A DNA stretch of 64,000 nt, taken from the NCBI GenBank assembly GCA_964187785.1, contig OZ076409.1:74402001-74466000 (forward strand), in the 5' to 3' direction. This document shows positions 1 to 61,299 of this stretch, piece by piece (position 1 is the first letter of the stretch; each line of letters begins with the position of its first letter). The DNA comes from Amphiscolops sp. MND2022 (Eukaryota). The notes below the pieces were generated by a model. That model did no database searches and was not told the origin of the DNA. It worked only from the letters and a program-made list of their open reading frames with translations. Position numbers and translations under genes: made by a program.

Positions 1-52
1 CCCTTCGACGACGTATGCCAAATGCCCAGTGCCACGCAGTCATTTTCGCTAG
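1..52 (+). mobile_element. Partial monomer U0 (3' end only)
   Basis: End of palindrome (CCCTTCGACGACG), terminal segment identical to the U43 end, CTAG at 49-52. Confidence 0.55.
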
Positions 53-1030
53 GTGGCCGTGTCTTTTCGACGTGCTTTTGCATTGAGGAGTGGGTAGGGC
101 CCCGCGACGACCTAGAAGAATTGGATGCTCACCGAAACGTGCAGAATTCTACGAGATCTCATAGTTTGAGCCATACGATTTTTCTGAAATTTGGCATGTG
201 GCCTGGAATTGGTGAGTAGGTAAAACGTGTAGAAGGTAATTTTTCCCAAATTCCACTGTGAGAGGAGATATGGGCAAATAACGGACCCAAAAATGGGGAA
301 AATGCACTTTTTTCAAGTTTGTCAGCCAATATCTCATTTCCAGGTGCCCGTAGCGTTCCGCACGTGGACGTCAATATTGCTCAGCGCTGTTGGAGGAGTG
401 CGTGGACAAATTTTGGTTCAAATCGGACTTAAACTTGACGAGAAATTAACGGTTTTTTGGGCGTTTCCGGGGTAAATTTTTTAACGGTCCAGCTTATCTT
501 TGCCATTTTTTCGAAAATGTACATGCCTAAAGGCCTCCCCCTGGCCGAATTTACTCCCAGCAAACCCATTTGGCCCTAAATACGGAGTTTCAGCGTTCCA
601 GCATTCCGGGGCGGAAAGTTGTGGGACTTGGAAAAATTTCAAAATTTTTTCAAAAATTTTTTTTCCCGTTTTCCGGGCCCCCAATGAAGGGGAACGACCC
701 CCCAACCAGTATTTTGAGTGAATTCATGTGGAACGCCCATGTTTGGAGGAGAAAAATGCCGTTTAGCACATCTTTTTATCTTAACTTGACATTGACTTAT
801 GACGTTTTGAATGTGATGTTAGGATATATGAAGCATGTTAAAAGTTGAAGTTTTGAGTTTTTATCTCATCGGAAAACCATTGAGATACAAGAAGTTTTGC
901 TAAAAACGATTTTCATTGTAAGTTAGCAGAGTATTAGTACACTTTGATGTCATTTGAGTATTTTTTTCTATATAATAACTGTTTTTATGTATTTATTCCA
1001 ATTTATCTCATCTTTTAACATCAAGCAGTT

Positions 1031-1073
1031 GAGTACATTTCATCTCCCTTTCGGGGGAGATGAGAATGTACTC
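1031..1073 (+). other. Internal bulged hairpin (exemplar; GAGTACATT-type in most units)
   Basis: GAGTACATTTCATCTCCC-TTTCGG-GGGAGATGAGAATGTACTC: inverted repeat with one unpaired base in the 3' arm. Confidence 0.85.
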
Positions 1074-1260
1074 GCTAAAAACCTAATGCTATGGCGCCAA
1101 TGTTTGGATGGGAAGTTTTCTATGCTTTGAAAAAAGTTATTTTTAATTACTTGATTTTTTAAAACAATAATTAACATGAAGTACATTACTTGCTCCTACT
1201 ACTACCACCATACATCTCTAACGTCAACGCCCCCTGCTTGCATCAACGCCCACCGTCCGT

Positions 1261-1280
1261 GGGCATGCCGAGGCATGCCC
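1261..1280. promoter_or_regulatory. Subterminal palindrome GGGCATGCCGAGGCATGCCC, p53-family response-element-like (exemplar; 44 intact copies)
   Basis: Two adjacent decamers GGGCATGCCG/AGGCATGCCC match RRRCWWGYYY x2 at 19/20; binding is not demonstrated. Confidence 0.5.
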
Positions 1281-1330
1281 TTCGACGACGTATGCCAAAT
1301 ACCATATGCCACGCAGTCTTTTCCCGCTAG

Positions 1331-2617
1331 GTGCCGGGATTTCTATTCGTTCGAGTATGTGGCGCGTGTGGGTAGGGCCCCTGGCGCGCTCTTTTATTTC
1401 GGGTACACCTACTCCAAATTCACGATGTGATTTCGACGATCTCGTAAACTAGCCACACGATTTGGCTGAAATTTGGCACACGTACCCCCCTCGGCACGGT
1501 GAAGATGATTCCCTACTGACGTTTTGCTCGCTAAACATTTTTTGTTGACCAAAATAACGGTTTTTGGGGTAAAATTTTCAACTTTTTTTAAATTTCATCT
1601 TATATCTCGCCACGGGTACACGCTAGCGCTTCCACACCTTGCTGACGAAAGTTTGCAAACTGTCTCAGGAATGCTGTGTGAAATTTTCAGCTCAATCGGA
1701 CTTAAACTCGAGGAGATATAGCGTTTTTCCGGAGCGGGGGGGTTTCATTTTTCTAACGGTCCAGCTTATCTTTGCCATTTTTTCAAAAATGCACTCGCCT
1801 AAAGGCCTCCCCTGGCCGGTTTTATTCCCAGCAAAACCATTTGGCCCTAAATACGGAGTTTCAGCGTTCCAGCATTCCTGGGCGAAAAGTTGTGGGACTT
1901 AGAAAATTTCAAAAATTTTCAAAAAAATTTTTTTCCGTTATTTGGGCCCCCAAAGTGGGGGAAAAGACCCCCCAAGCAGTAAAGCAAGTGAATGCATGTG
2001 CAAAGCCCTTGTTTAGAGGAGAAAAATGCCGTTTAGAACGTCTTTTTATCTTGGCTCAACGTTGACTTATGACGTTTTGAAGGTGATGTTTGGAGGTGTA
2101 AAGCTCGTGAATAGTAAACGTTATGAGTATTTATCTGATCTGAAAGCCATTGAGATGCAATATGGTTTGCTCAAAACATAAATCATGGCAGTTTGGCAAT
2201 CAATCAACACCCTTTGTTGTCGTTTGACATACTATTTTGTTGTTATAATAAAAAATTTTGTGTATTTATTCATTTTTTTCTCATCAAATAACTTGAAACA
2301 GTTGAGTACATTCCATCCCCCCCTTCCGGGGGAGATGAGAATGTACTCGCAAAAAGCACCGAACTACGGCCCTTACCTTCCCGAGCTACGCAGTATAAGG
2401 ATTACATATTGGTTCCGACATTTTCATAGAGTTATATCTTGGTAATCTGTCTGGATATGCAGAAAAATCAGCACGTGCCTCTTAATACCAAGTTGCTCAC
2501 AACGACAATTCTTTTATATCAACGCCCCCATCTTTATCAACGCCCCCCGTCCGTGGGCATGCCGAGGCATGCCCTTCGACGACGTGCACCAAGATATGCT
2601 ATAACGCGTTAGCCTAG
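1331..2617 (+). mobile_element. Monomer U2, major family M (1287 bp)
   Basis: Head GTGCCGGG; similar to U30; CTAG|GTG boundaries. Confidence 0.6.
1362..1389 (+). other. Head stem-loop with TAGGG loop (exemplar)
   Basis: GCGCG-TGT-GGG TAGGG CCC-CTGG-CGCGC; an equivalent hairpin with varying arms sits near the start of units from all families examined. Confidence 0.7.
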
Positions 2618-3930
2618 GTGCCGGGATTTCTATTCGATAAAGTATGTGGCGCGTGTGGGTAGGGTCCCTGGCGCGCTCTTGGGTATGGTGTTCACCAGCT
2701 AGGAAATAGGGGTCGATTTTTCGGGATCTCCTAAACTAGCCACACGATTTGGCTGAAATTTGGCACACGTACTCCCCTCGGCATGGTGAAGATGATTCCC
2801 TACTAGCGTTTTGCTCGCAAAATTTTTTTTGTTGTCCAAAATAACGGTTTTTGGGGTAAAATTTTGAATTTTTTTTAAAGTTTATCTTATATCTCGCCAC
2901 GGGTTTACGCTAGCGCTTCAGAACCCTGCTAAAGAAAGCTTGCAAACTGTCTCAGGAATGCGGTGTGAAATTTTCAGCTCAATCGGACTCAAACTCAGGG
3001 AGATATAGCGTTTTTCCGGAGCGGGGGGGTTTCATTTTTCTAACGGTCCAGCTTATCTTTGCCATTTTTTCGAAAATGCACTCGCCTAAAGGCCTCCCCT
3101 GGCCAGTTTTATTCCCAGCAAAACCATTTGGCCCTAAATACGGAGTTTCAGCGTTCCAGCATTCCCGGGCGAAAAGTTGTGGGACTTAGAAAAATTCAAA
3201 AATTTTCAAAAATTTTTTTTTCGGTTTTCCGCCCTCCCCCCCGAGGGGAAAAGACCCCCCAACCAGTAATTTGAGTGAATTCATGTGGAAAGGCCATGTT
3301 TAGACGAAAAAATTGCCGTTTAGAACGTCTTTCTATCTCAACCTGACATTGACTTATGAAGCTTTAAAGGTGATGTTTGGACGTGTGAAGCATGTAAAAA
3401 AAGGAATTTTTTTGATTTTATTTCATCAGAAAGTCATTGAATCACACGCTGTGAAGCCCAGAGCGTGGTTTCTAATAGTTTGGTATCGTTTAAACGCATT
3501 TTGGTGTCTTTTTACTCTGTTTAAAAAACTTTTCTCCTGAAAATTAATAAATTTTGATTACTTTTCTTACTTTCCATTAATTTTTTTTTCTTATATTTTT
3601 ACTTGAAACAGTTGAGTACATTCCATCTCCCTTCCCGGGGGAGATGAGAATGTACTCGCAAAAAGCCGCGAACTACGGCCCATACCTTCCCGAGATACGC
3701 AGTATAAAGATAACATAATGGTCCAGACATTTTAATGGAGTTGTATCTTGGTAATATGTCTGGATTTGCAGAAAAATCAGCACGTGCCATTTTATACCAA
3801 GTTGCTCGCAACGACAATTAATTTAAATCAACGCCCCCCACAAAAATCAACGCCCCCCGTCCGTGGGCATGCCGAGGCATGCCCTTCGACGACGTGCACC
3901 AAAATATGCCCCGAGCGCGTTAGCAGCTAG
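2618..3930 (+). mobile_element. Monomer U3, family M (1313 bp)
   Basis: Head shared with U13/U15/U41; tail related to U33. Confidence 0.6.
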
Positions 3931-21836: not shown

Positions 21837-24030
21837 GTGGAGGTTATTTTATAATAATTAATGTGTTTTTTTCCGGAGTTTGTGGCTTTGGAAAAAACAA
21901 AAGGCGAGAAATCGGGCACTCCGGGCTGAACCGTATACACTCAAATTTCGCCCATTTTTTATACGATCTCGAAACTCAGCCGTACGATTTGGCTGAAAAT
22001 TTGCATGCGGCTACAAATTGAGATTCTAAGAACTATTTCCTGGTGACATTTTTTTGAAATTTTTGTGTACGTTTCCCCCCCGCCCCCTAAAGGGGCCAAT
22101 TTTCCCCACTTTTGCACTTATGAGTCAAATTCTCAAAACTGGTGGATCTGAGCGTATTCCCGCCAGGGACAACTTTTAACAAGCGCTCCTCAGTAGACCT
22201 TCATGACTTTTTACTTTGGTGGTACGTTCACCCCCCGAGGAGGAAATTGCGTTTTTGTGACTTCCGGTCGAGGCTTTTTTCACCCAAAAATTAGATTTAA
22301 GCCAGTTTTGAGCAGGAAGGAGTGGATTTAAAGTGCCTGTACCCTGCTAAAAATTTGTTGGGCTTGTAGCGATATATCTCATACCAAGTCTGGTTTTCAC
22401 CCCCAAACCCCCCTTGAGACCAAAATTCACCCAAAGTTTTTTTACCTCTGTTTGTAGTTTTTTTACCGAATATCGTCATTTCCATGGGTAAGGAGTTGAA
22501 TTAGGGGCTCCTAATAGGGTACCAATGTTCAAGTACACTTGCAGTGCAACTGATTGACCCTTTTTGGGCCTCTCCTGTGTTCGGCAAGGACCGGAAGCGG
22601 TGTAACCCCCCCTTTTTTGACGTTTGTTGACCTTGAGACTCGCGCTTAGATGACGTTTATGTCGCGCGAATCCTACAAACAAGTATTAGGATGACATGCT
22701 AGCCAACTAGAGAGCAGTAAGGGAAACAATATTATACCGGAAGTAACCCCCCGTGACCGGAAGTTGTCATTTTTGACCGCAAATGGTCCAAAACCTAGCG
22801 TAAAAGCAGTTTTTCATTGCTTTTAAAGTCAACTTCTTACATTTTTCAATCTGCGCGAGCTTTTCTTCAGGTTCGTTTTTGTTGCCAGTGCACAGCAACG
22901 AATATACAACTGTAAAATTTTCGCTATAATTTTGTCGGAGAGAGAAATAACGGATTATTTGGACTTTTTTTCAAAAATATTAGTCTACATCTGTCATTTT
23001 TACCCAATGTTACTCAACAGTAGAACCACAGGTTTTATTCTCTGCCCAAAAATATGCCTAACAAATTCACCTGTCCCTTTGGTTGCAGTTTGAGCATTCT
23101 AGCTTTACCTGGTCACAAGTTAGGGGACTTGAAAAAGTTTCAAAAATTTTTCCGAAAAATTTTTCTAAACGTCATGTCTCCCAAAGTTAAGAAACTTCCG
23201 CACAACTAGGATTACAAGTGAATGCACGTGGTAAGACCTATAATTGGAGAGAAAAATTCAGTTTGGAACGTCTCTTTATCGTAACGTGACGTTAAGAGAA
23301 GTTGCTTTGAATGCGAGCTTGATGAGACGTCGAGAAGTAACAGTGTGTAAATGGAACCTATGTCTCGACAAATACTCATCGGAATACATGAGATGAACCC
23401 CAATTACCCTCAATTTCAGTTGCCTAGTACAACAACGTCTTCCAAGGACCCTTTAATCTTTTTGATAAGCGTTGAAGTCATCATTAGCTTGAGTTCGCAA
23501 GAAACAATTGAGTACATTCTCATCTCTCCCCATCGGGTGAGATGAGAATGTTTTTGCTAAAAGCCAGGTACTACGGCCCAATTTTGTTTTATTGCGACGC
23601 ATTCTGTGCTTTAGCACATAGATACTTTTATTCCGTCTCACTTTTTGTATACACTCTGATTTGTTGTTATAAATTTCTCGTCATTACTTTACATAAACTA
23701 ATCACCATAAAACTTTAACGTCAAAGCCACATTCATTTAGACGCCCACCATTCCGTAGGTATGCCGAGGTATGCCATTCAAAGATGTATGTCAAACGCAA
23801 ATGCGATAAAATTAGTGCTGAAAATCGGAAACAGTGACAAACAGTTTTGACTTTTTGATATTTGTTAGGTTTTCATATGGAACTTACACATCACTGACAA
23901 TTCAAAACATTCCAGCTGACGCTCACATACAAACATCAACGCCCACCGTCTGTGGGCATGCCGAGGCATGCCCTTCGACGACGTATAGCAAATTCCTTTA
24001 ATATCTACACCCAATTGCGGTAGCAGCTAG
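21837..24030 (+). mobile_element. Monomer U18 (2194 bp), long chimeric unit
   Basis: U19-like front half, diverged main-type back half, relic terminus at ~23717-23820. Confidence 0.55.
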
Positions 24031-25419: not shown

Positions 25420-27413
25420 GTGGGCGGTAGGTTTCCCGTAGTCAAAAAAAAATTGCAGGCCGGGGTAGGGGCCCTGGCCGAGGCAAAATACCATAGAAAA
25501 GGTACCAAATTATGTGAGTTTAGAAAATTGAGCCATACAAATTCTCTGAAAATTGCTGTGTGTACCCTATCGCCCAATCTAAGAACTTTTTCCTGCTGAC
25601 GTTTTGCTCTCCAAATGTTACTAATATGACTTTTTGAAAAATTTATCTCTGGTTTTTCATCAAAAATAGTGATTTTGGCAATTTTTGTGAAATATCTCTG
25701 ATTGCATTAATTTTTGGACGTTGACTGTGAAACAAGGTCGGAACCATCATTTCGTGACCATGGCAATGCACTAAACACAAAAGATGTAGAGTTTTTAAAT
25801 TTTTTGAAAATTTGACATTTTTAAATTTTTTTCACTACTATCAGTACCATATATGTCAAAATAACCTCAGAAAAATTTTTTTATTTTACTTATTTTAGAA
25901 TCCTTGCTATCCATGGTTTCTGTTAGTATCTACTCGCTGCCAGAGACTCAACAGTTAGCATCGAATCTGAAATTAAAAATTTTTTCGAGGTCATAGGTGT
26001 TTCACAAGGATTTCACAACATAGTCTTGTTTTACAAATAGGTCATTTACAACATCATATTTTCATCGAGGCATGTCGGATATAGTCTTATTGCTCACGAA
26101 CGGTCCTACTGGCAACGTAATAACCATTTATAGAAATATAAAGTTTTAAAAAAATCTTTTCACCCGTTCTTCAGACATTTTTCAGACATTCGGAACTTAA
26201 CTTAGAAAAATTTCGTCTCAAAAACCCATTTTTCGTCAGGTCGAAATTTGAAATTCAGCTTTTGAAGCACAAATATGCACTCTGACGTAACCAGTAGGGC
26301 CAATGATACTCAACAACACCATTGAGACTGGTATCAGTCGCTCCAAAAACATATGAGCCGTGATAAGACGTTTTTTTCAACAATACTGTTCAATTGATGT
26401 AAACATCGCGGAAGCCTTGGATTACAGTGAAAGTTGATTTGAACAAAAATTTACTCTTTTTTGTCAATCACTATGTAGACAGAATGCGTAGGGTAAGTTT
26501 CAGCACTAATATGAAGATTTTGGAGGAATCGGGTTGCTCAAGGCGTGGTATGAGATACTTTTTTCTCATATACTAGTGTTTTTCAAAACCTTTTCGTTAA
26601 ATATCTCAAAAAGCAAACATTAAAAAATACTTTCCGATATCTAATTTAATTCCTAGAATATAAATGAATCATGTGGTTGATCAGAAACTCTCTACTTTAA
26701 TGTTTCCAGAAAAAAATCCCTTCCCATGTTTTATATCTGTAGCAGTAAAAAAAGTAGACGCTAAAAAATACGCTATTTTGCTAAGATTGAATTGCAATTG
26801 TTTAGCTTTAAAACTCTTTTAATACTTCTAACGCCACCTTAAGGACTCAAGATGATTGAAAATGTCAATCACAATGCTGACATGTAGTCTTTCTACGATC
26901 CTGGCTGGAAAGATTTTGATTATTTTTCAAGTACCTGTTAACTGAATCTCGTGATAGCCTTCTAAGTTGACCTTCTGCGTCAACTTGAGAAGGCTATCAC
27001 TAAAATAAACTAAATTCTGATTTGTTTGTTTGTTCCTAACGTCTTTTGGTACGATCGTCTTACGGTTAGTTGGTTAAACCAGGTCGCTTATACTTCCACA
27101 ATTTTCGACCACCGTCCGTGTATTCGGTTCACACGACTTTACATTTTCAGTCGTTTGTTTTCGATAACTATCACAATGTACTGCCATTAGCGCAAAATTC
27201 ATACTAGTACTTGGTTGGTTGAAATACTTAAACAACTGTTTCCATAGTTATTCGCGGTGATGGTACAATCCGCGCGCCTACATACCTACGGCGTCTTGTC
27301 ACTACAACGCCACATAGGGAAACAACGCCCATAGTCCGTAGGCATGCCGAGGCATGCCTTTCGACGACGCGCGCCAAACACAAGCGCGCCCGCACTTGTG
27401 CGGTAGCTGCTAG
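25420..27413 (+). mobile_element. Monomer U20, family D (1994 bp), AT-rich body
   Basis: Near-identical to U25; body unrelated to other families, but same head scaffold and terminus. Confidence 0.6.
26951..27000 (+). other. Internal bulged hairpin, family D version
   Basis: GTGATAGCCTTCT-AAGTTGAC-CTTCTGC-GTCAACTT-G-AGAAGGCTATCAC: 13 bp + 8 bp stems, single bulged G. Confidence 0.9.
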
Positions 27414-32608: not shown

Positions 32609-34594
32609 GTGGGCGGTAGGTTTCCCGTAGTCAAAAAAAAATTGCAGGCCGGGGTAGGGGCGCTGGCCGAGGCAAAATACCATAGAAAAGGTACCAAATT
32701 ATGTGAGTTTAGAAAATTGAGCCATACAAATTCTCTGAAAATTGCTGTGTGTACCCTATCGCCCAATCTAAGAACTTTTTCCTGCTGACGTTTTGCTCTC
32801 CAAATGTTACTAATATGACTTTTTGAAAAATTTATCTCTGGTTTTTCATCAAAAATAGTGATTTCGGCAAATTTTGTGAAATATCTCTGATTGCATTAAT
32901 TTTTGGACGTTGACTGTGAAACAAGGTCGGAACCATCATTTCGTGACCATGGCAATGCACTAATTACAAAAGATGTAGAGTTTTTAAATTTTTTGAAAAT
33001 TTGACATTTTTAAATTTTTTTCACTACTATCAGTACCATATATGTCAAAATAACCTCAGAAAATTTTTTTTATTTTATTTAATTTAGAATCCTTGCTATC
33101 CATGGTTTCTGTTAGTATCTAGTCGCTGCCAGAGACTCAACAGTTAGCATCGAATCTGAAATTTAAAATTTTTTCGAGGTCATAGGTGTTTCACAAGGAT
33201 TTCACAACATAGTCTTGTTTTACAAATAGGTCATTTACAACATCATATTTTCATCGAGGCATGTCGGATATAGTCTTATTGCTCACGAACGGTCCTACTG
33301 GCAACGTAATAACCATTTATAGAAATATAAAGTTTTAAAAAATCTTTTCACCCGTTCTTCAGACATTTTTCAGACATTCGGAACTTAACTTAGAAAAATT
33401 TCGTCTCAAAAACCCATTTTTCGTCAGGTCGAAATTTGAAATTCAGCTTTTGAAGCACAAATATGCACTCTGACGTAACCAGTAGGGCCAATGATACTCA
33501 ACAACACCATTGAGACTGGTATCAGTCGCTCCAAAAACATATGAGCCGTGATAAGACGTTTTTTCAACAATACTGTTCAATTGATGTAAACATCGCGGAA
33601 GCCTTGGATTACAGTGAAAGTTGATTTGAACAAAAATTTACTCTTTTTTGTCAATCACTATGTAGACAGAATGCGTAGGGTAAGTTTCAGCAATGAAGAT
33701 TTTGAAGGAATCGGGTCGCTCAAGGCGTGGTATGAGACACTTTTTTCTCATATACTAGTGTTTTTCAAAACCTTTTCGTTAAATATCTCGAAAAGCAAAC
33801 ATTAAAAATATTTTCTGATATCTAATTTAATTCCTAGAATATAAATGAATCATGTGGTTGATCAGAAACTCTCTACTTTAATGTTTCAAGAAAAAAATCC
33901 CTTCCCATGTTTTATATCTGTAGCAGTAAAAAAAGTAGACGCTAAAAAATACGCTATTTTGCTAAGATTGAATTGCAATTGTTGAGCTTTAAAACTCTTT
34001 TAATACTTCTAACGCCACCTTAAGGACTCAAGATGATTGAAAATGTCAATCACAATGCTGACATGTAGTCTTTCTACGATCCTGGCTGGACAGATTTTGA
34101 TTATTTTTCAAATACCTGTTAACTGAATCTCGTGATAGCCTTCTAAGTTGACCTTCTGCGTCAACTTGAGAAGGCTATCACTAAAATAAACTATGTTCTG
34201 ATTTGTTTGTTTGTTCCTAACGTCTTTTGGTACGATCGTCTTACGGTTAGTTGGTTAAACCAGGTCGCTTAAACTTCCACAATTTTCGACCACCGTCCGT
34301 GTATTCGGTTCACACGACTTTACATTTTCAGTCGTTTGTTTTCGATAACTATCACAATGTACTGCCATTAGCGCAAAATTCATACTAGTACTTGGTTGGT
34401 TGAAATACTTAAACAACTGTTTCCATAGTTATTCGCGGTGATGGTACAATCCGAGCGCCTACATACCTACGGCGTCTTGTCACTACAACGCCACATAGGG
34501 AAACAACGCCCATAGTCCGTAGGCATGCCGAGGCATGCCTTTCGACGACGCGCGCCAAATCTATGCGCGCCCGCACTTGTGCGGTAGCTGCTAG
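32609..34594 (+). mobile_element. Monomer U25, family D (1986 bp)
   Basis: Near-identical to U20. Confidence 0.6.
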
Positions 34595-35673: not shown

Positions 35674-36951
35674 GTGGCCGGAAATTTTTTTTTTCAGCAA
35701 AATCTTTGCCATTGGGGGAGGGGCCCCGGATGGCCAGTAGTTCGGCTTGGCTACCTGCAAAATCAGGTACAAAAAAACACGATCTCAAAATTGGCCCGTC
35801 AGAATTCGCTCATTTTTTGCATGCGGCCCTAGAATCAATATATAAGAACAAAGTCCTGCTGACGTTTTGCCGAAAAAACATTTTTTGTTGACCAAAAATA
35901 ACATTTTTCATGCCAAAATGACCGTTTTTTCACATTTTTCAACTCTGAGAGCTCATATCTCGTTCCCAGGTGCCCGGAGCGGTTCGCACGTGAACTGCAA
36001 TATTGCTCAGCGTTGTTAACGGAGTGCGTGGACAAATTTTGGTCTAAATCGGACTTAAACTCGGGGAGATATAAACGGATTTTTGGGGGTTTCCGGGGTA
36101 AATTTTTTAACGGTCCAGCTTATCTTTGCCATTTTTTCGAAAATGTACTCGCCTAAAGGCCTCCCCCTGGCCGAATTTACTCCCAGCAAAACCATTTGGC
36201 CCTAAATACGGAGTTTCAGCGTTCTAGCATTTCCGGGCGAAAAGTTGTGGGACTTAGAAAAAATTCAAAATTTTTCAAAAAATTTTTTTTCGTTTTCCGG
36301 CCCCCCAATGAAGGGGAACGACCCCCCAACTAGGATTTTTGGTGAATCCATGCGAAAAGGTCTTGTTTAGTGGAGAAAAATGCCGTTTAGAGCGACTTTT
36401 TATCTTAACTTGACGTTGACTTATGCCGTTTTGAATTTGATATTAGTATGTGTTGAGCATGTGAAAAGTTGAATATTTCAGTTGTTCTTTCGTGTTAGCC
36501 ATTGAGATACAAGCTGTAGTGATCAAAATGTGATTTTTCGCAGTTTCGTGGTGCTTTTGGTGTATTTTGATTCTTTTGATAAAAAAGTTGTTCTTTATAT
36601 ATTGACAATTTTGGTGTATTGATTCAAAAGAACATGAAACAGTTGAGTACATTTCATCTCCCTCTTGAGGGAGATGAGAATGTACTCGCTAAAGTCCTAG
36701 TGCTATGGCCCATTTTTGTTTTTTTCAGACGCAGATACTGCCAACCGATACTTTTTGTTGGTGCAACTTTCCTGTGCACAATGTCTTTAGAAGCTAGAAA
36801 ACTCTATGTCTCTAGCTTACTTCTCCTACAAATTCGTCACCGACGTCAACGCCACACACTCTCACTAACGCCCACCGTCTGTGGGCATGCCGAGGCATGC
36901 CCTTCGACGACGTATGCCAAATAGCGCCACAGGGCGCCCAATTTTGTCTAG
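35674..36951 (+). mobile_element. Monomer U27 (1278 bp)
   Basis: Near-identical to U36; B-like start, A-like middle. Confidence 0.6.
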
Positions 36952-38226
36952 GTGGCCGTGTCTTTTCGACGTGCTTTTGCATTGAGGAGTGGGTAGGGCC
37001 CCGCGACGACCTAGAAGAATTGGATGCTCACCGAAACGTGCAGAATTCTACGAGATCTCATAGTTTGAGCCATACGATTTTTCTGAAATTTGGCATGTGG
37101 CCTGGAATTGGTGAGTAGGTAAAACGTGTAGAAGGTAATTTTTCCCAAATTCCACTGTGAGAGGAGATATGGGCAAATAACGGACCCAAAAATGGCAAAA
37201 ATGCACATTTTTCAACTTTGTCAGCCAATATCTCTTTTCCAGGTGCCCGTAGCGTTCCGCACGTGGACATCAATATTGCTCAGCGCTGTTGGAGGAGTGC
37301 GTGGACAAATTTTGGTTTAAATCGGACTTAAACTTGACGAGAAATTAACGGTTTTTTGGGCGTTTCCGGGGTAAATTTTTTAACGGTCCAGCTTATCTTT
37401 GCCATTTTTTCGAAAATGTACATGCCTAAAGGCCTCCCCCTGGCCGAATTTACTCCCAGCAAACCCATTTGGCCCTAAATACGGAGTTTCAGCGTTCCAG
37501 CATTCCGGGGCGGAAAGTTGTGGGACTTGGAAAAATTTCAAAATTTTTTCAAAAATTTTTTTTCCCGTTTTCCGGGCCCCCAATGAAGGGGAACGACCCC
37601 CCAACCAGTATTTTGAGTGAATTCATGTGGAACGCCCATGTTTGGAGGAGAAAAATGCCGTTTAGTACATCTTTTTATCTTAACTTGACATTGACTTATG
37701 ACGTTTTGAATGTGATGTTAGGATATATGAAGCATGTTAAAAGTTGGAGTTTTGAGACTTTATCTCATCGGAAAACCATTGAGATACAAGCAGTTTTGCT
37801 AAAAACGATTTTCATTGTAGATTAGCAGAGTATTAGTACACTTTGATGTCATTTGAGTATTTTTTTCTTCTATATAATAACTGTTTTTATGTATTTATTC
37901 CAATTTATCTCATCTCATTTTAACATCAAGCAGTTGAGTACATTTCATCTCCCTTTCGCGATGTACTCGCTAAAAACCTAATGCTATGGCGCCAATGTTT
38001 GGATGGGAAGTTTTCTATGCTTTGAAAAAAGTTATTTTTAATTACTTGATTTTTTAAAACAATAATTAACATGAAGTACATTACTTGCTCCTACTACTAC
38101 CACCATACATCTCTAACGTCAACGCCCCCTGCTTGCATCAACGCCCCATCGTCCGTGGGCATGCCGAGGCATGCCCTTCGACGACGTATGCCAAATGCCC
38201 AGTGCCACGCAGTCTTTCCCCGCTAG
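36952..38226 (+). mobile_element. Monomer U28, family A (1275 bp), internal hairpin damaged
   Basis: Near-identical to U1; right inner arm of the hairpin deleted near 37958. Confidence 0.6.
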
Positions 38227-42084: not shown

Positions 42085-43366
42085 GTGGCCGTGTCTTTTC
42101 GACGTGCTTTTGCATTGAGGAGTGGGTAGGGCCCCGCGACGACCTAGAAGAATTGGATGCTCACCGAAACGTGCAGAATTCTACGAGATCTCATAGTTTG
42201 AGCCATACGATTTTTCTGAAATTTGGCATGTGGCCTGGAATTGGTGAGTAGGTAAAACGTGTAGAAGGTAATTTTTCCCAAATTCCACTGTGAGAGGAGA
42301 TATGGGCAAATAACGGACCCAAAAATGGCAAAAATGCACATTTTTCAACTTTGTCAGCCAATATCTCTTTTCCAGGTGCCCGTAGCGTTCCGCACGTGGA
42401 CATCAATATTGCTCAGCGCTGTTGGAGGAGTGCGTGGACAAATTTTGGTTTGAATCGGACTTAAACTTGACGAGAAATTAACGGTTTTTTGGGCGTTTCC
42501 GGGGTAAATTTTTTAACGGTCCAGCTTATCTTTGCCATTTTTTCGAAAATGTACATGCCTAAAGGCCTCCCCCTGGCCGAATTTACTCCCAGCAAACCCA
42601 TTTGGCACTAAATACGGAGTTTCAGCGTTCCAGCATTCCGGGGCGGAAAGTTGTGGGACTTGGAAAAATTTCAAAATTTTTTCAAAAATTTTTTTTCCCG
42701 TTTTCCGGGCCCCCAATGAAGGGGAACGACCCCCCAACCAGTATTTTGAGTGAATTCATGTGGAACGCCCATGTTTGGAGGAGAAAAATGCCGTTTAGCA
42801 CATCTTTTTATCTTAACTTGACATTGACTTATGACGTTTTGAATGTGATGTTAGGATATATGAAGCATGTTAAAAGTTGAAGTTTTGAGTCTTTATCTCA
42901 TCGGAAAACCATTGAGATACAAGCAGTTTTGCTAAAAACGATTTTCATTGTAGGTTAGCAGAGTATTAGTACACTTTGATGTCATTTGAGTATTTTTTTC
43001 TTCTATATAATAACTGTTTTTATGTATTTATTCCAATTTATCTCATCTTTTAACATCAAGCAGTTGAGTACATTTCATCTCCCTTTCGGGGGAGATGAGA
43101 ATGTACTCGCTAAAAACCTAATGCTATGGCGCCAATGTTTGGATGGGAAGTTTTCTATGCTTTGAGAAAAGTTATTTTTAATTACTTGATTTTTTAAAAC
43201 AATAATTAACATGAAGTACATTACTTGCTCCTACTACTACCACCATACATCTCTAACGTCAACGCCCCCTGCTTGCATCAACGCCCCATCGTCCGTGGGC
43301 ATGCCGAGGCATGCCCTTCGACGACGTATGCCAAATGCCCAGTGCCACGCAGTCTTTCCCCGCTAG
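42085..43366 (+). mobile_element. Monomer U32, family A (1282 bp)
   Basis: Near-identical to U1/U28/U38. Confidence 0.6.
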
Positions 43367-45954: not shown

Positions 45955-47221
45955 GTGCCGGGATTTCTATTCGTTCGAGGAAGTGGCGCGTGTGGGTAGG
46001 GCCCCTGGCGCGCTCTTGTGTTTCGGGTTCTCCTACTCCTAATTCACACCCAAGATTTCTCGGATCTCGTAAACTATCCATACGATTTGGCTGAAATTTG
46101 GCACACAGCTCCGTTGGAACATTGTAAGAACAAATCCCTACTGACGTTTTGCCCGCTAAACATTTTTTGTTGGTCAAAAATGCGATTTTCCGACAAAATT
46201 TTTGACTTTTTTTTCTTTTTCAACTCATATCTCGCCACAGGGTCACGCTAGCGCTTCGCAGCCTATGATCCTTTTTTGTAGGGCGTTGTCTGTAGAACAC
46301 GTATGCCAAATTTGGTGGCGATCGGACTTAAACTCAGCGAGATAGAGCCATTTTTTAGGTGCATTTTTTGACATTTTTTGCATTTGCCGATTTATCTCTG
46401 CCATTTTTTGCCCAAATTTTTTTTGAGACACTCTCCTAAAGACCTCCCCTGGCCGGTTTACCTCCCAACAAAACCATTTGGCCCTAAATACGAAGTTTCA
46501 GCGTTCTAGCATTCTCGGGCGAAATGTTGTGGGACTTATAAAAATTTTTTGGAAACGCAAAATGTGTAAAGTCAACTTCAGGCCTCCCAAAGTCAAAGAA
46601 CTTCCACACAACTAGTATTGCAAGTGAATGCATGTGGAAAGTACTGGAATAGACGAGAAAAATGAGCTATAGAACGACTCTGTAGCTTAACCTGACGTTG
46701 ACTTATGATGTTTTGAATGTTTGCTTGCTAAGTGGTCCGAAATTGAAAATTTTTAAAGAATATTTATATCGTCAAAAAATCATCGGAATGCCTGCAATAT
46801 ACAGTAGAGCGTGTTCAATTGTAGCTGACTAATGCATAAACGCCGCTCAAGGTCTTTTAACGCAGTTTCAATTTTTTTTACACTGTATTATCCATCCGAG
46901 AGATCGAAACAGTTGAGTACATTCCATCTCCCTCCCGGGGGAGATGAGAATGTACTCGCTAAAGTCCAGATACTACAGCCCATATTTGTTTCTCTGCAAC
47001 GCCATCTAAGCTACTGCACATAATTACTATTCTTAAGACTGAATTTTGCCTTCACTTTGACTTGACATATGCTGAAGGTTTGATCCTTACACACATCAAC
47101 ATTACCTGAACAAAACAATCCCAACATCAACGCCCAACACTCACATCAACGCCCACCGTCCGTGGGCATGCCGAGGCATGCCCTTCGACGACGTATGCCA
47201 AATGAGCGCGGTAGCAGCTAG
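45955..47221 (+). mobile_element. Monomer U35 (1267 bp)
   Basis: U14/U16-like middle. Confidence 0.6.
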
Positions 47222-48499
47222 GTGGCCGGGAATTTTTTTTTTCAGCAAAATCTTTGCCATTGGGGGAGGGGCCCCGGATGGCCAGTAGTTCGGCTTGGCT
47301 ACCTGCAAAATCAGGTACAAAAAAACACGATCTCAAAATTGGCCCGTCAGAATTCGCTCATTTTTTGCATGCGGCCCTAGAATCAATATATAAGAACAAA
47401 GTCCTGCTGACGTATTGCCGAAAAAACTTTTTTTGTTGACCAAAAATAACATTTTTCATGCCAAAATGACCGTTTTTTCACATTTTTCAACTTTGAGAGC
47501 TCATATCTCGTTCCCAGGTGCCCGGAGCCGTTCGCACGTGAACTGCAATATTGCTCAGCGTTGTTAACGGAGTGCGTGGACAAATTTTGGTCCAAATCGG
47601 ACTTAAACTCGGGGAGATATAAACGGATTTTTGGGGGTTTCCGGGGTAAATTTTTTAACGGTCCAGCTTATCTTTGCCATTTTTTGGAAAATGTACTCGC
47701 CTAAAGGCCTCCCCCTGGCCGAATTTACTCCTAGCAAAACCATTTGGCCCTAAATACGGAGTTTCAGCGTTCTAGCATTTCCGGGCGAAAAGTTGTGGGA
47801 CTTAGAAAAAATTCAAAATTTTTCAAAATTTTTTTTTTCGTTTTCCGGCCCCCCAATGAAGGGGAACGACCCCCCAACTAGGATTTTTGGTGAATCCATG
47901 CGAAAAGGTCTTGTTTGGTGGAGAAAAATGCCGTTTAGAGCGACTTTTTATCTTAACTTGACGTTGACTTATGTCGTTTTGAATTTGATATTAGTATGTG
48001 TTGAGCATGTGAAAAGTTGAATATTTCAGTTGTTCTTTCGTGTTAGCCATTGAGATACAAGCTGTAGTGATCAAATTGTGATTTTTTGCAGTTTCGTGGT
48101 GCTTTTGGTATATTTTGATTCTTTTGATAAAAAAGTTGTTCTTTATATATTGACAATTTTGGTGTATTGATTCAAATGAACATGAAACAGTTGAGTACAT
48201 TTCATCTCCCTCTTGGGGGAGATGAGAATGTACTCGCTAAAGTCCTAGTACTATGGCCCATTTTTGTTTTTATCAGACGCAGATACTGCCAACGGATACT
48301 TTTTGTTGGTGAAACTTTCCCCTGCACAAAGTCTTTAGAAGCTAGAAATCTCTATGTCTCTAGCTTACTTCTCCTACAAATTCGTCACCGACGTCAACGC
48401 CACACACTCTCACTAACGCCCACCGTCCGTGGGCATGCCGAGGCATGCCCTTCGACGACGTATGCCAAATAGCGCCACAGGGCGCCCAATTTTGTCTAG
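47222..48499 (+). mobile_element. Monomer U36 (1278 bp)
   Basis: Near-identical to U27. Confidence 0.6.
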
Positions 48500-49778: not shown

Positions 49779-51062
49779 GTGGCCGTGTCTTTTCGACGTG
49801 CTTTTGCATCGAGGAGTGGGTAGGGCCCCGCGACGACCTAGAAGAATTGGATGCTCACCGAAACGTGCAGAATTCTACGAGATCTCATAGTTTGAGCCAT
49901 ACGATTTTTCTGAAATTTGGCATGTGGCCTGGAATTGGTGAGTAGGTAAAACGTGTAGAAGGTAATTTTTCCCAAATTCCACTGTGAGAGGAGATATGGG
50001 CAAATAACGGACCCAAAAATGGCAAAAATGCACATTTTTCAACTTTGTCAGCCAATATCTCTTTTCCAGGTGCCCGTAGCGTTCCGCACGTGGACATCAA
50101 TATTGCTCAGCGCTGTTGGAGGAGTGCGTGGACAAATTTTGGTTTAAATCGGACTTGAACTTGACGAGAAATTAACGGTTTTTTGGGCGTTTCCGGGGTA
50201 AATTTTTTAACGGTCCAGCTTATCTTTGCCATTTTTTCGAAAATGTACATGCCTAAAGGCCTCCCCCTGGCCGAATTTACTCCCAGCAAACCCATTTGGC
50301 CCTAAATACGGAGTTTCAGCGTTCCAGCATTCCGGGGCGGAAAGTTGTGGGACTTGGAAAAATTTCAAAATTTTTTCAAAAATTTTTTTTCCCGTTTTCC
50401 GGGCCCCCAATGAAGGGGAACGACCCCCCAACCAGTATTTTGAGTGAATTCATGTGGAACGCCCATGTTTGGAGGAGAAAAATGCCGTTTAGCACATCTT
50501 TTTATCTTAACTTGACATTGACTTATGACGTTTTGAATGTGATGTTAGTTAACATATGAAGCATGTTAAAAGTTGAAGTTTTGAGTGTTTATCTCATCGG
50601 AAAACCATTGAGATACAAGCAGTTTTGCTAAAAACGATTTTCATTGTAGGTTAGCAGAGTATTAGTACACTTTGATGTCATTTGAGTATTTTTTTCTTCT
50701 ATATAATAACTGTTTTTATGTATTTATTCCAATTTATCTCATCTTTTAACATCAAGCAGTTGAGTACATTTCATCTCCCTTTCGGGGGAGATGAGAATGT
50801 ACTCGCTAAAAACCTAATGCTATGGCGCCAATGTTTGGATGGGAAGTTTTCTATGCTTTGAAAAAAGTTATTTTTAATTACTTGATTTTTTAAAACAATA
50901 ATTAACATGAAGTACATTACTTGCTCCTACTACTACCACCATACATCTCTAACGTCAACGCCCCCTGCTTGCATCAACGCCCCATCGTCCGTGGGCATGC
51001 CGAGGCATGCCCTTCGACGACGTATGCCAAATGCCCAGTGCCACGCAGTCTTTCCCCGCTAG
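49779..51062 (+). mobile_element. Monomer U38, family A (1284 bp)
   Basis: Near-identical to U32. Confidence 0.6.
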
Positions 51063-56185: not shown

Positions 56186-57454
56186 GTGGCCGTGTCTTTT
56201 CGACGTGCTTTTGCATCGAGGAGTGGGTAGGGCCCCGCGACGACCTAGAAGAATTGGATGCTCACCGAAACGTGCAGAATTCTACGAGATCTCATAGTTT
56301 GAGCCATACGATTTTGCTGAAATTTGGCATGTGGCCTGGAATTGGTGAGTAGGTAAAACGTGTAGGAGGTGATTTTTCCCAAATTCCACTCTGAGACGAG
56401 ATATGGGCAAATAACGGTCCCAAAAATGGCAAAATTGCACTTTTTTCAACTTTGTCAGCCCATATCTCGTTCCCAGGTGCCCGGAGCGGGACGCGTTAAG
56501 CTGATTATAAACTCTAGGGTGTTGAGGCGGTACGGTGAACTTTGGCCCGTTCCGATCGGACTTGTAGTCTTGGAGAAATAACGGTATTTTTGGGAAATTT
56601 TTTCTAACGGTCCAGCTTATCTTTGCCATTTTTCGAAAATGTACTCGCCTAAAGGCCTCCCCCTGGCCGAATTTACTCCCAGCAAAACCATTTGGCCCTA
56701 AATACGGAGTTTCAGCGTTCCAGCATTCCCGGGCGAAAAGTTGTGGGACTTGGAAAAATTTCAAAAATTTTCAAAATTTTTTTTTACGTTTTCCGGGCCC
56801 CCAATGAAGGGGAAACGACCCCCCAACCCTTATTTTGAGTGAATGCATGTGGAAAGGCCATGGTTAGAGGAGAAAAATGCCGTTTAGATTGTCTTTCTAT
56901 TTTAACTTGACATTGACTTATGACGTTTTGAATGTGATGTTAGGATGTGTGAGGCATGTGAAAAGTTGATGTTTTGAGTCTTTATCTCATATGAAAGCAA
57001 TTGAGATGCACGCTGTCCTGCTCAAAACGTCTTTCGTTGTAGTTTTCCAGTGCACCAGAACCCTTTGGTGTCATTTGAACATACTTTTCTTCGGTTTATT
57101 AACATTTTTAATGTATTTATTCCAATTTTTATTATCTTATAGCTCAAAACAGTTGAGTACATTTCATCTCCCTTTCGGGGGAGATGAGAATGTACTCGCT
57201 AAAGACCTAGCGCCATGACCAAAATTTGAAGCGCACGTTTTGTATCTTCTTACAGACTTGTTTTTGTATTTTTTCGGATTTTTCTAAAAAATAATAATAT
57301 ACTTGAAATACATTACTTGACTTTACTACTACATTCCACCTCCAACGTCAACGCCCCCCTGCTTGCATCAACGCCCACCGTCCGTGGGCATGCCGAGGCA
57401 TGCCCTTCGACGACGTATGCCAAATGCCCAGTGCCACGCAGTCATTTTCGCTAG
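56186..57454 (+). mobile_element. Monomer U43, family A' (1269 bp)
   Basis: Related to U23/U39. Confidence 0.6.
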
Positions 57455-58722
57455 GTGCCGGGATTTCTATTCGTTCGAGTATGTGGCGCGTGTGGGTAGG
57501 GCCCCTGGCGCGCTCTTGTGTTTCGGGTTTTCCTACTCCTAAACCGCGTTCAGATTTTCGGGATCTCGTAAACTAGCCATACGATTTGGCTGAAATTTGG
57601 CACACGTACCCCCCTCGGCACGGTGAAGATGATTCCCTACTGACGTTTTGCCCGCTAAACATTTTTTGTTGACCAAAATAACGGTTTTTGGTGGAAATTT
57701 TTCAACTTTTTTTAAAATTCATCTTATATCTCGCCCCAGGTTTACGCTAGCGCTTCAAAACCTTGCTGACGAAAGTTTGCAAACTGTCTCAGGAATGCGG
57801 TGTGAAATTTTCAGCTCAATCGGACTTAAACTCGAGGAGATATAGCGTTTTTCCGGAGCGGGGGGGTTTCATTTTTCTAACGGTCCAGCGTATCTTTGCC
57901 ATTTTTTCGAAAATGCACTCGCCTAAAGGCCTCCCCTGGCCGGTTTTACTCCCAAAAAAACCATTTGGCCCTAAATACGGGGTTTCAGCGTTCTAGCATT
58001 TTCGGGCGAAAAGTTGTGGGACTTAGAATATTTCAAAAATTTTCAAAAAAATTTTTTTCCGTTATTTGGGCCCCCAATGTGGGGGAAAGGACCCCCCAAC
58101 CAGTATTTTGAGTGAATGCATGTGCAAAGCGCTTGTTTAGAGGAGAAAAATGTCGTTTAGAACGTCTTTTTATCTTTACTCAACGTTGACTTTTGTCGTT
58201 TTGAAGGTGACCGTTAGATATGGAAAATTGATGTTTTGAGTATTTATCTCATCTGAAAGCCATTGAGATACAACATGTTTTGCTCAAAACGTGTTTCATT
58301 GCAGTATCGCTGTCCATTAACACCCTTTGGTGACTTTTGACATATTTTTTTTATATATAATATCACTTTTTTGTGCATTTTTTCGTTTTTTTCTCATCTA
58401 ATATCTTGAAACAGTTGAGTACATTCCATCTCCCTTCCCGGGGGAGATGAGAATGTACTCGCTAAAGGCCATGAACTACGGCCTATACCTTCCCGAGCTA
58501 CGCACTACAATTATTGCATATGCATGCAGACCTTTTAATACATTTTTATCTTTATAGATTGACTGGACAAACTGAAAACTCTGTCCTGATTATACAAAGT
58601 TACCTCACAACGACACATGTTTACGTCAACGCTCCATACTTTACATCAACGCCCACCGTCCGTGGGCATGCCGAGGCATGCCCTTCGACGACGTATAGCC
58701 ACTCAAACGCGGTAGCCGCTAG
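57455..58722 (+). mobile_element. Monomer U44, family M (1268 bp)
   Basis: U42-like middle, U6-like tail. Confidence 0.6.
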
Positions 58723-60012
58723 GTGCCGGGATTTCTATTCGTTCGAGTATGTGGCGCGTGTGGGTAGGGCCCCTGGCGCGCTCTTGTGTTTGGGGGTTTC
58801 CTACTTCTAAATCACGTTCAGATTTCCGGGATCTCGTAAACTATCCATACGATTTGGCTGAAATTTGGCACACGTACCCCCCTCGGCACGGTGAAGATGA
58901 TTTCCTACTGACGTTTTTCCCGCTAAACATTTTTTGTTGACCAAAATAACGGTTTTTGGTGGAAAATTTTTGATTTTTTTTAAATTTTATCTTATATCTC
59001 GCCACGGGTCCACGCTAGCGCTTCCAAACCTTGCTGACGAAACCTCGCAAACTGTCTCAGGAATGCTGTGTGAAATTTTCAGCTCAATCGGACCTAAACT
59101 CGGGGAGATATAGCGTTTTTCCGGAGCGGGGGGGTTTCATTTTTCTAACGGTCCAGCTTATCTTTGCCATTTTTTCGAAAATGCACTCGCCTAAAGGCCT
59201 CCCCTGGCCGGTTTTACTCCCAAAAAAACCATTTGGCCGTAAATACGGAGTTTCAGCGTTCTAGCATTCCGGGGCGAAAAGTTGTGGTACTTAGTAAATT
59301 TCAAAAATTTTCAAAAATTTTTTTTTCGTTATTTGGGCCCCCAAAGTGGGGGAAAAGACCCCCCAACCAGTAATTTGAGTGAATTCATGTGGAAAGGCCA
59401 TGTTTAGCGGCGAAAAATGCTTTTTAGATCATCTTTTTATTTTAACCTGTTGTTGACTTATGTTGTTTTGAAGGTGATGTTTGGATGTGTGAAGCATGTG
59501 AAAAGGTAATTTTTTGTGTCTTTATCTCTTCTAAAAGCCATTGAGATGCAATCTGTTTTGCTCAAAACGTAATTCAATGCAATTTGGCAGTCAATGAACA
59601 CAATTTGGTGTCTTTTGTTATATTTTTCTGTTGATATAATAAAAAATTTTGTGTCTTTATTAATTTTTTTTAAATAAAATAACTTGAAACAGTTGAGTAC
59701 ATTCCATCCCCCCCTTCCGGGGGAGATGGAAATGTACTCGCTAAAAGCCGCGAACAAGAGCCCATACCTTCCTGCGCTACGCAGTATAAAGATTGCATGT
59801 TGGTTCCGACTTTTTGGTAGTGTTATATCTTGGTAATTTGACTGAATATGGAGAAAAATCAGCAAGTGCTCTTTTATAGCAAATTGCTGACAACGACAAT
59901 TTTTTTATATCAACGCCCCCATATTTATCAACGCCCCCCGTCCGTGGGCATGCCGAGGCATGCCCTTCGACGACGTATACCAAGATATACTCACGAGCGC
60001 GGTAGCCGCTAG
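58723..60012 (+). mobile_element. Monomer U45, family M (1290 bp)
   Basis: U6 head, diverged tail. Confidence 0.6.
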
Positions 60013-61299
60013 GTGCCGGGATTTTCTATTCGACAAGTTTGCGCGCCTTGGGGAGGGTCCCTTTGCGCGCTTTAAGATCCAGGTGTTTCCAACTCCTAAA
60101 CGGGCATGTGATTTCGACGATCTCCTAAACTAGCCATACGATTTGGCTGAAATTTGGCACACGTACCCCCCTCGGCACGGTGAAGATGATTTCCTACTGA
60201 CGTTTTTCCCGCTAAACATTTTTTGTTGACCAAAATAACGGTTTTTGGGGTAAAATTTTCAACTTTTTTTAAATTTCATCTTATATCTCGCCACGGGTAC
60301 ACGCTAGCGCTTCAAAACCTTGCTGACGAAAGCTTGCAAACTGTCTCGGGAATGCGGTGTGAAATTTTCAGCTCAATCGGACTTAAACTCGAGGAGATAT
60401 AGCGTTTTTCCGGAGCGGGGGGGTTTCATTTTTCTAACGGTCCAGCTTATCTTTGCCATTTTTTCGAAAATGTACTCGTCTAAAGGCCTCCCCTGGCCGG
60501 TTTTATTCCCAGCAAAACCATTTGGCCCTAAATACGGAGTTTCAGCGTTCCAGCATTTCCGGGCGAAAAGTTGTGGGACTTAGAAATTTTCAAAAATTTT
60601 CAAAAATTTTTTTTCCGTTATTTGGTCCCCCAAAGTGGGGGAAAAGACCCCCCAACCAGTAAAGCAAGTGAAAGCATGTGCAAAGCCCTTGTTTGGACGA
60701 GAAAATTGCCGTTTAGAACGTCTTTTTATCTTGGCTCAACGTTGACTTATGACGTTTTGAAGGTGATGTTTGGAGGTGTAAAGCAAGTGATTAGTAAACG
60801 TTATGAGTTTTTATCTGATCTGAAAGCCATTGAGATGCAATATGGTTTGCTCAAAACGTAATTCATTGCAGTTTGGCAATCAATCAACACCCTTTGTTGT
60901 CGTTTGACATACTTTTTTGTTGTTATAATAAAAAATTTTGTGTATTTATTCATTTTTTTCTCATCAAATAACTTGGAACAGTTGAGTACATTCCATCCCC
61001 CCCTTCCGGGGGAGATGAGAATGTACTCGCAAAAAGCACCGAACTACGGCCCTTACCTTCCCGAGCTACGCAGTATAAGGATTACATATTGGTTCCGACA
61101 TTTTCATAGAGTTATATCTTGGTAATCTGTCTGGATATGCCGAAAAATCAGCACGTGCCTTTTAATACCAAGTTGCTCACAACGACAATTATTTTATATC
61201 AACGCCCCCATATTTATCAACGCCCCCCGTCCGTGGGCATGCCGAGGCATGCCCTTCGACGACCCGCACCAAAATATGCGTTAGCGCGGTAGCAGCTAG
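60013..61299 (+). mobile_element. Monomer U46, family M (1287 bp)
   Basis: Near-identical to U31. Confidence 0.6.

Follow-up and report, generated by a model that had tools for sequence, protein, structure and literature searches.

How can a genome accumulate tens of kilobases of head-to-tail repeats in which near-identical units keep turning up beside different neighbours? This question is raised by a window of 64,000 nucleotides on contig OZ076409.1 (C1 hereafter) of Amphiscolops sp. MND2022, by which we mean the whole stretch of DNA that was analyzed. The window divides into 48 whole units (U1 to U48) and two units cut at its edges, and the motif CTAGGTG, found 49 times on the + strand and once on the - strand, recurs at the spacing of one unit, i.e., every 1,070-2,194 bp. 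A preliminary description made from the letters alone had proposed that the single monomer is the unit of movement and that it is copied and inserted at the junction between units. Our analysis supports this view, as well as a Helitron-like RepHel protein encoded in the arrays as the agent. The grounds are breakpoints exact to the seam between units, chance-level dimers in the window, the copies of a 12-kb element, and an empty target site. The units are gene-less members of a distinct Helitron-like clade, apart from HLE1 and HLE2 of the same genome, and we think it probable that the array grew as RepHel placed single units into CTAG|GTG seams where resident elements meet.

Monomers, neighbours and seams

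Monomers were compared by global identity, in the window and in an extended set of 264 kb (171 units) consisting of the window and 100 kb on each side. Family A (U1, U28, U32, and U38) shows 97.6-99.2% identity, and the other pairs named in the preliminary description bring the span to 97.0-99.6%, with 98.2% for U20/U25, 97.0% for U19/U21, 98.4% for U5/U29, 98.0% for U27/U36, 97.5% for U23/U39, and 99.6% for U31/U46. Such copies do have different neighbours, since none of the 14 window pairs with at least 97% identity has a neighbour pair at 95% or more. The broader statement that these neighbours are all of different types is correct at that threshold but not below it, some being relatives (U6/U30 at 87% and U30/U45 at 89%). 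U10 and U11 adjoin each other at 98.2% identity. As for the claim that no two-unit block is repeated, all-versus-all alignment and a check of dimer order bear it out in the window, where repeats are at chance level at all thresholds tried (0 against a shuffled mean of 0.39 at ≥95%, 2 against 1.4 at ≥93%, and 6 against 4.6 at ≥90%). Over 264 kb, the claim holds at ≥99% (0 of 30 pairs) but gives way to a slight excess at lower thresholds, which is weighed below.

Where family linkage ends could be located over the same 264 kb. On the upstream side, copies of the same type agree at 0.96 at position -5, against 0.66 for the previous unit and 0.56 for random; on the downstream side, agreement is 1.00 at +4, against 0.62 for the next unit and 0.56 for random. 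Since copies agree to -5 and from +4 while their neighbours are near random, the exchange point maps within the 7 bp of the seam CTAG|GTG, as expected if similarity is bounded by GTG and CTAG. The same is seen with a much longer unit: all seven examined copies of a 12-kb family are bounded by seams on both sides, and no two have the same pair of neighbours.

This arrangement is not confined to the window. The assembly of 1.07 Gb contains 4,239 matches to the 3' hairpin motif of the units, and ~99% of tested copies abut another element. One tail is followed by GTG[GC] in 353 of 358 copies, two hairpin-less tails (172 and 195 matches) are followed by GTG in all of the first 100 listed of each, and free ends number 47 against the 4,239 hairpin matches, the two patterns differing slightly. 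Judging from end-motif matches and sampled stretches, a large array of about six million letters, in one orientation, occupies ~C1:70.5-76.5 Mb, and further arrays are present on contigs C1, C2, C3, C4, C5, C6, C7, C8, and C10, the small ones sitting in unrelated flanks on several contigs. The matches listed concentrate on C1:70.5-76.5 Mb and towards the ends of contigs C2 and C3, and among them no large array shows on several contigs. A centromeric repeat would be expected to form a single main array on every chromosome and to bind CENP-A. Old dispersed fragments exist, and a few insertions inside units occur. At C1:23.977-23.980 Mb, opposite-strand arrays converge in a stretch with 200 N, possibly a misoriented join, and at C1:76,005,438 and C3:20.94-20.95 Mb other retroelement-like open reading frames (ORFs) follow or interrupt arrays, one of them directly after the CTAG end of a unit.

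The encoded RepHel, its target and the anatomy of the units

Full-length partners are found in the same arrays. They are 12-17 kb long, have the same ends, and encode an HUH Rep-Pif1 helicase of 2,300-2,600 residues, in some cases with a GIY-YIG domain. In a 12,016-bp example whose end lies 63 kb upstream of the window, a GTG start and a terminal hairpin plus CTAG flank a 2,328-residue ORF, and the unit matches a monomer at 95.6% over 787 nt. Pfam recognizes Helitron_like_N (PF14214) and PIF1 (PF05970) in this protein and in a 2,373-residue sister. GIY-YIG is a weak match in the sister and seems degenerate in the 2,328-residue protein; several library homologues score above the Pfam cut-off for it. 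The HUH and YxxxY residues of the sister are invariant in a 27-sequence alignment, and the sole fold match at E ≤ 0.001 for a model of its Rep region (pLDDT 79.6) is Helraiser (7LCC, 6.9e-9). The Rep region has at least 114 matches in the genome, with 31-100% identity, and 34 of the 114 RepHel matches fall within C1:70.5-76.5 Mb, all on the + strand. Ten intact elements were sampled on six contigs: eight stand directly against array units, a ninth is solo, and the tenth (C3:3.158-3.176 Mb) has neither a recognized GTG nor a recognized CTAG, with a related copy 15.4 kb downstream; the latter possibly represents a subfamily with another seam. A protein library contains 842 homologues at E ≤ 0.001, including a hagfish member among the ten that were looked up, and one relative carries an OTU domain. 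A metagenome scan with one protein gave a single weak 1.3-kb match, and the contigs of two runs, which yielded nothing but short pieces, are not counted as evidence. Two pairs of homologues, P0151/P0156 (294,117) and P0162/P0163 (528,941), share the same largest-contig size, which hints at several elements per contig elsewhere. Full-length elements also contain an extra ORF after RepHel with no Pfam match (L098:2472-3485, at C1:75.70 Mb), and ORFs of similar size follow RepHel at L048:3223-4389, L054:4257-5261, and L080:3048-4445. The one tested resembles OB-fold single-stranded DNA binders such as POT1 and RPA (language-model score of 0.92), but with a low recognition value that makes it a lead only.

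In phylogenies, this RepHel belongs neither to the HLE1 nor to the HLE2 clade. A Rep tree separates 32 clade sequences (9 from this genome and 23 from the library) from two HLE1-type and six HLE2-type sequences of the same genome with an SH-like support of 0.997, on a long branch and with few outgroups. A Rep plus helicase tree, built from rows with a motif match and thus leaving out the HLE1 rows and 12 homologues, separates 24 clade sequences from six HLE2-type ones with an ultrafast bootstrap of 100. DUF6570, an HLE2 marker (PMC11417382), is absent from all 25 clade sequences, some of them partial, while it is present in the five HLE2-type loci scanned. The broad definition of Helitron-like elements fits, with an HUH Y2 Rep fused to an SF1 Pif1-like helicase and no target-site duplication, as seen from solo copies and from empty paralogous sites at one locus. 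So does the 3' CTRR of HLE1 (329 CTAG and 24 CTGG among 358 seams scanned), but not its 5' TC, since 49 of 49 window units begin with GTG, a boundary fixed by the empty site. No short asymmetric terminal inverted repeats of the HLE2 kind were noticed in the inspected ends, for which no dedicated search was made. Since at least four further clusters are left unclassified in PMC11417382, the clade is set apart here from HLE1 and HLE2 only.

The target was read from insertions outside arrays. An eight-unit array at C1:29,528,102-29,544,034 lies inside a dispersed repeat, at CTAG|TTGGATTTT. Five of seven paralogues of this repeat reach the site, and all five cross CT[AG]G-TTGGATTTT uninterrupted, without an insert or a duplication; homology stops ~12 bp further on. 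With duplicates counted once, the left flanks of 15 full-length solo copies and array starts are CTAG in five cases, CTTG in five, CTCG in one, and something else in four. Solo copies have CTTG or CTCG at their left and CTAG at their right, and the base at +2 past free 3' ends is T in 28 of 30, using a pattern that excluded G at +1. The target is thus CTNG|NT, without duplication, which is neither the A|T of HLE1 nor the T|T of HLE2. The seam CTAG|GT itself fits this consensus, and because each element ends with CTAG and starts with GT, insertion recreates targets. The consensus does not explain the arrays, however, since ~5.4 million genomic CTNG|NT sites (estimated from 171 kb of flank) and 233 sites inside U1-U48 (82 on the same strand and 151 on the opposite one) stay unused, while copies abut elements. 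Replitron and tyrosine-recombinase (Crypton-like) origins, which the shared CTAG had suggested, were dropped because a RepHel was found and the left flanks of solo copies vary. At C2:16.31 Mb (L164:6612-8589, minus strand), the insertion point of a solo copy falls near the anticodon arm of a degenerate tRNA-like sequence, which was detected at a relaxed threshold only.

The window itself consists of non-autonomous relatives of these elements (Table 1). Most monomers resemble full-length elements over their first 760-800 nt (70-95%) and in the 3' hairpin region. U27 matches the ends of a 17.0-kb RepHel element on C5 over its first 760 nt (94%) and over 82 nt near its end (93%), and looks like an internal-deletion derivative. 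The core of the 5' stem-loop was matched in 46 of 49 window heads, two others being one base off. The perfect 3' hairpin sits 56-76 nt from the end in most units but is missing in several families (in the window, from U17, U26, U37, and U48). Units of the U18 type have a second, degenerate 3' hairpin (window position 23757) ~270 nt from the end, as though the unit had been lengthened on this side. None of 83 stop-to-stop frames of 90-188 residues in the window was accepted as a gene, no cargo gene was found in its units, an Rfam scan of it gave no match, and TRF reported short repeats only.

Table 1. Features of the window, in window coordinates
Feature	Position	Strand	Description
Array segment	1..64000	+	Mixed head-to-tail segment of non-autonomous Helitron-like elements; C1:74,402,001-74,466,000
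First seam	49..55	+	First of 49 CTAG|GTG seams, where the 3' end of an element meets the 5' end of its neighbour; predicted nick and integration site
U1	53..1330	+	1.28-kb non-autonomous unit, family A
U28	36952-38226		Family A copy
U32	42085-43366		Family A copy
U38	49779-51062		Family A copy
5' stem-loop core	92..103	+	Conserved, GGG-KAGGGN-CCC, ~40 nt inside each unit
3' hairpin	1261..1280	+	Perfect, 9-bp stem, 2-nt loop
U18	21837..24030	+	2.2-kb unit, GTG start, no 5' stem-loop core
U20	25420..27413	+	2.0-kb family, between unrelated 1.39-kb units U19 and U21
U25	32609-34594		Copy of U20
U27	35674..36951	+	
U36	47222-48499		Copy of U27
U35	45955..47221	+	First 798 nt 93% identical to 5' end of a 12.05-kb RepHel element, C1:75.69 Mb
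U48	62572..63641	+	1.07-kb family lacking the 3' hairpin; forms runs of kin at other genomic sites

Proposed growth at the seam and competing explanations

Our model starts from Helraiser, which forms circles with precise end-to-end junctions and whose RTS-LTS junctions are cleaved precisely in vitro (PMC5876387). By analogy, a unit would be released as a circle closed by a CTAG|GTG junction. Since Helraiser cleaves end-to-end junctions and a chromosomal seam is that junction, the seam would be the same substrate as the circle, and is predicted to be the preferred site of nicking and integration. The 3'-OH of its CTAG would be joined to the incoming GTG end and the incoming CTAG to the displaced GTG, the nick probably being made via the conserved 5' stem-loop. 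Because each insertion adds a seam, array growth would be self-reinforcing, and new arrays would be seeded by the rare insertion that falls on a plain genomic CTNG|NT.

Several observations weigh against growth by single insertions at seams, or limit how far it can be taken. No activity, no circle, and no filled/empty polymorphism at a seam within an array was seen. Over 264 kb, dimers are slightly more frequent than expected (28 against 15.5 at ≥95%, P = 0.015; 5 against 2.2 at ≥97%, P = 0.06), as are trimers (9 against 2.6 at ≥93%, P = 0.015; none at ≥97%), an excess that accompanies local clustering of families. Four of the 15 left flanks are not CTNG, although one of these heads is doubtful. 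Related monomers have recombined internally, with 61 segment patterns in 98 units. Finally, the share of copies in arrays could be inflated by selection against dispersed ones, and junction scans required CTNG|GTG[GC], so that other seams are undercounted.

The mosaics bear directly on the first alternative, in which a transposase only seeded a satellite-like array that was then shuffled through its conserved ends, by unequal exchange, by gene conversion, or by circles integrating homologously. Shuffling would also account for the clustering of related families, which falls off with distance, and for tails of near-identical pairs that are slightly less conserved than heads (0.95 against 0.99, over 40 nt). 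Yet exchange in the shared hairpin would uncouple tail from body, whereas tails track the body up to -5; among nine units with atypical tails, three are unscorable and three slightly closer to the kin of the upstream unit. Furthermore, unrelated units of 1.07, 1.39, 2.0, 4.8, and 12-17 kb join at one and the same base, and no dimer is repeated at ≥99%. We regard shuffling as unlikely to be the main process. Neither multi-unit blocks nor arbitrary breakpoints, the hallmarks of satellite DNA with higher-order repeats, were found, and the array is not satellite DNA. Since related monomers are mosaics, recombination or template switching makes new types, which then move whole.

Alternatively, a chromatin domain might attract the elements or be the only place where they persist, the seam being merely a good match to a 6-bp consensus. 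The fit of CTAG|GT to CTNG|NT, the old dispersed fragments, and the few insertions inside units are all compatible with this. It would, however, leave the 82 and 151 unused sites in U1-U48 and the placement of every join there at a unit end (over 264 kb, 2 of 171 units have an internal CTTG join) without explanation, and it sits poorly with small arrays in unrelated flanks on several contigs, which makes it quite improbable.

A third possibility is that these are known Helitron concatemers, in which rolling-circle read-through copies multi-unit blocks that are inserted together, as tandem Helitron arrays have been attributed to rolling-circle replication (PMC9248874 and PMC5876387). Five of 402 adjacent pairs (~1%) are at least 99% identical, so that rare tandem duplication does occur, and one split unit contains two 99.4%-identical copies at an internal CTTG|GTAA, followed by its own remainder. 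Concatemers would nevertheless give identical neighbours or repeated blocks, while 397 of 402 adjacent pairs are below 99%. Adjacent kin are also no closer than distant kin (0.948 for adjacent against 0.948/0.939 for non-adjacent in one run, and 0.884 against 0.875/0.879 in another), which argues against concatemers. As the principal source of the arrays this is very unlikely, and on present counts concatemer insertion is a minor route. Exceptions to seam-bounded units were collected from the + strand, with 5' exceptions among those listed. At C1:74,384,684-74,385,993, a family A unit is preceded, across a CTTG join, by a 2-kb unit cut down to its first 31 nt, whose remainder was not seen nearby, and C1:74,515,127-74,536,615 is a 21.5-kb unit that contains a frameshift-split RepHel, a dispersed repeat, and a truncated U24-like start. 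The mixed order can hardly be an assembly artefact. It is read from the assembly, and at C1:23.98 Mb arrays of opposite strand are connected through an N gap, but short arrays whose flanks are unique sequence are equally mixed, intact 7-kb ORFs are interspersed, and seams are base-exact.

If insertion at seams is accepted, which side of the seam is recognized? We lean towards the 5' end of the resident unit (the origin, with GTG and stem-loop) as the part that defines the target, with a bias for kin families. The stem-loop core is invariant across 15 heads, while tails are of 44 types, many without a hairpin. Native stem-loop arms pair better on average than swapped ones (mean of -8.2 against -5.35 kcal/mol); whole-head folding, with a mean z of -0.8, was set aside as a line of evidence. 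Moreover, one family found 3 times solo and 27 times internally closes 2 of the 4 arrays whose hairpin-type 3' end is free (binomial P ~3e-4, with a small n and noticed after the fact); a solo-prone family is expected there because, if the 5' end is the target, founders stay 3'-most. Other results are less favourable. In only 5 of 19 cases do native arms outrank every swapped partner, covariation in a hand-set head structure shows no excess (146 of 500 shuffles), intervals in a head-versus-tail regression include 0, and U18 has no stem-loop core. In addition, copies share previous-unit tails above random (0.711 against 0.666, P = 9e-6), which could implicate the tail.

Taking these elements together suggests, tentatively and at somewhat less than even chances, a widespread, undescribed third animal clade that uses its own transposition origin as its integration site. 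Its RepHel would be a eukaryotic single-strand site-specific integrase placing units of 1-17 kb exactly before a ~65-nt landing pad, with many diverged families sharing self-built, ever-growing havens in the genome.

Known systems and implications

The prevailing picture of Helitrons is one of insertion at dinucleotides, with arrays arising as concatemers. Whole units of several families stand head to tail in mixed order in the HeT-A/TART/TAHRE telomeres of Drosophila and in integron cassette arrays, which rely on reverse transcription at chromosome ends and on a tyrosine recombinase, respectively, a chemistry different from that of the units described here. Among Helitrons proper, canonical HLE1 elements such as Helraiser share with our elements the HUH Y2 Rep-Pif1, a 3' CTRR usually after a hairpin, the lack of target duplication, and non-autonomous partners (PMC11417382 and PMC5876387). 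They differ by a 5' TC instead of GTG and an A|T target, and our elements are further distinguished by the conserved internal 5' stem-loop, the C-terminal GIY-YIG, a separate Rep clade, and the location of nearly all tested copies in mixed arrays. HLE2 elements (Helentron/Helitron2) resemble ours in their long intronless RepHel of more than 2,000 residues and in the OTU domain of a relative, and one HLE2 family is reported to have captured a GIY-YIG (PMC11417382), while DUF6570, the T|T target, and the position in trees set them apart.

Tandem Helitron arrays known from bats, plants, and the Y chromosome of Drosophila pseudoobscura are likewise head-to-tail and in one orientation, but they are described as one element repeated, often partial, in the form of rolling-circle concatemers (PMC9248874, PMC5148889, and PMC5876387). 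Here, single full-length units of many families are intermixed, and their RepHels are 31-100% identical. Third-clade Helitrons of Paramecium (PMC13085455) also fall outside HLE1 and HLE2, insert in a sequence-specific and oriented manner, and show clustering of diverse elements; compared by description only, they differ in targeting the host telomeric repeat rather than their own seam. Oriented insertion at a short motif by an HUH enzyme, without duplication, is shared with IS91/IS608, which target tetranucleotides, and with TrwC and AAV Rep, whose integration goes to an origin-like target (PMC10288648, PMC5876387, and PMC6049929). The closest mechanistic analogue is TrwC, for which a copy of the enzyme's own oriT serves as the site of integration (PMC6049929), but these systems are prokaryotic or viral, long mixed arrays are not reported for them in the accessible portions of these sources, and the parallel is one of analogy only. 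The accessible part of a centromere atlas preprint mentions Helitrons only in general terms. The literature outside subscription journals, Repbase, and supplements yielded tandem concatemers and the telomere-targeting Paramecium clade, but no mixed seam-targeted Helitron arrays. Within that literature, the self-targeting habit was not found described for Helitron-like elements, a group into which our elements fit broadly while failing the definitions of HLE1 and HLE2.

If true, a clade that targets its own seams would represent a new target rule for Helitron-like elements, and a way for a transposon to produce satellite-like DNA on the megabase scale in the absence of homogenization. It would also be a natural case of a harmless-site choice common to many families. 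Since transposase copies are intact and near-identical, the mechanism is directly testable, and they suggest a landing-pad integrase for large cargo. The breadth of the protein family, with its 842 library matches, means that other genomes can be checked for the same habit.

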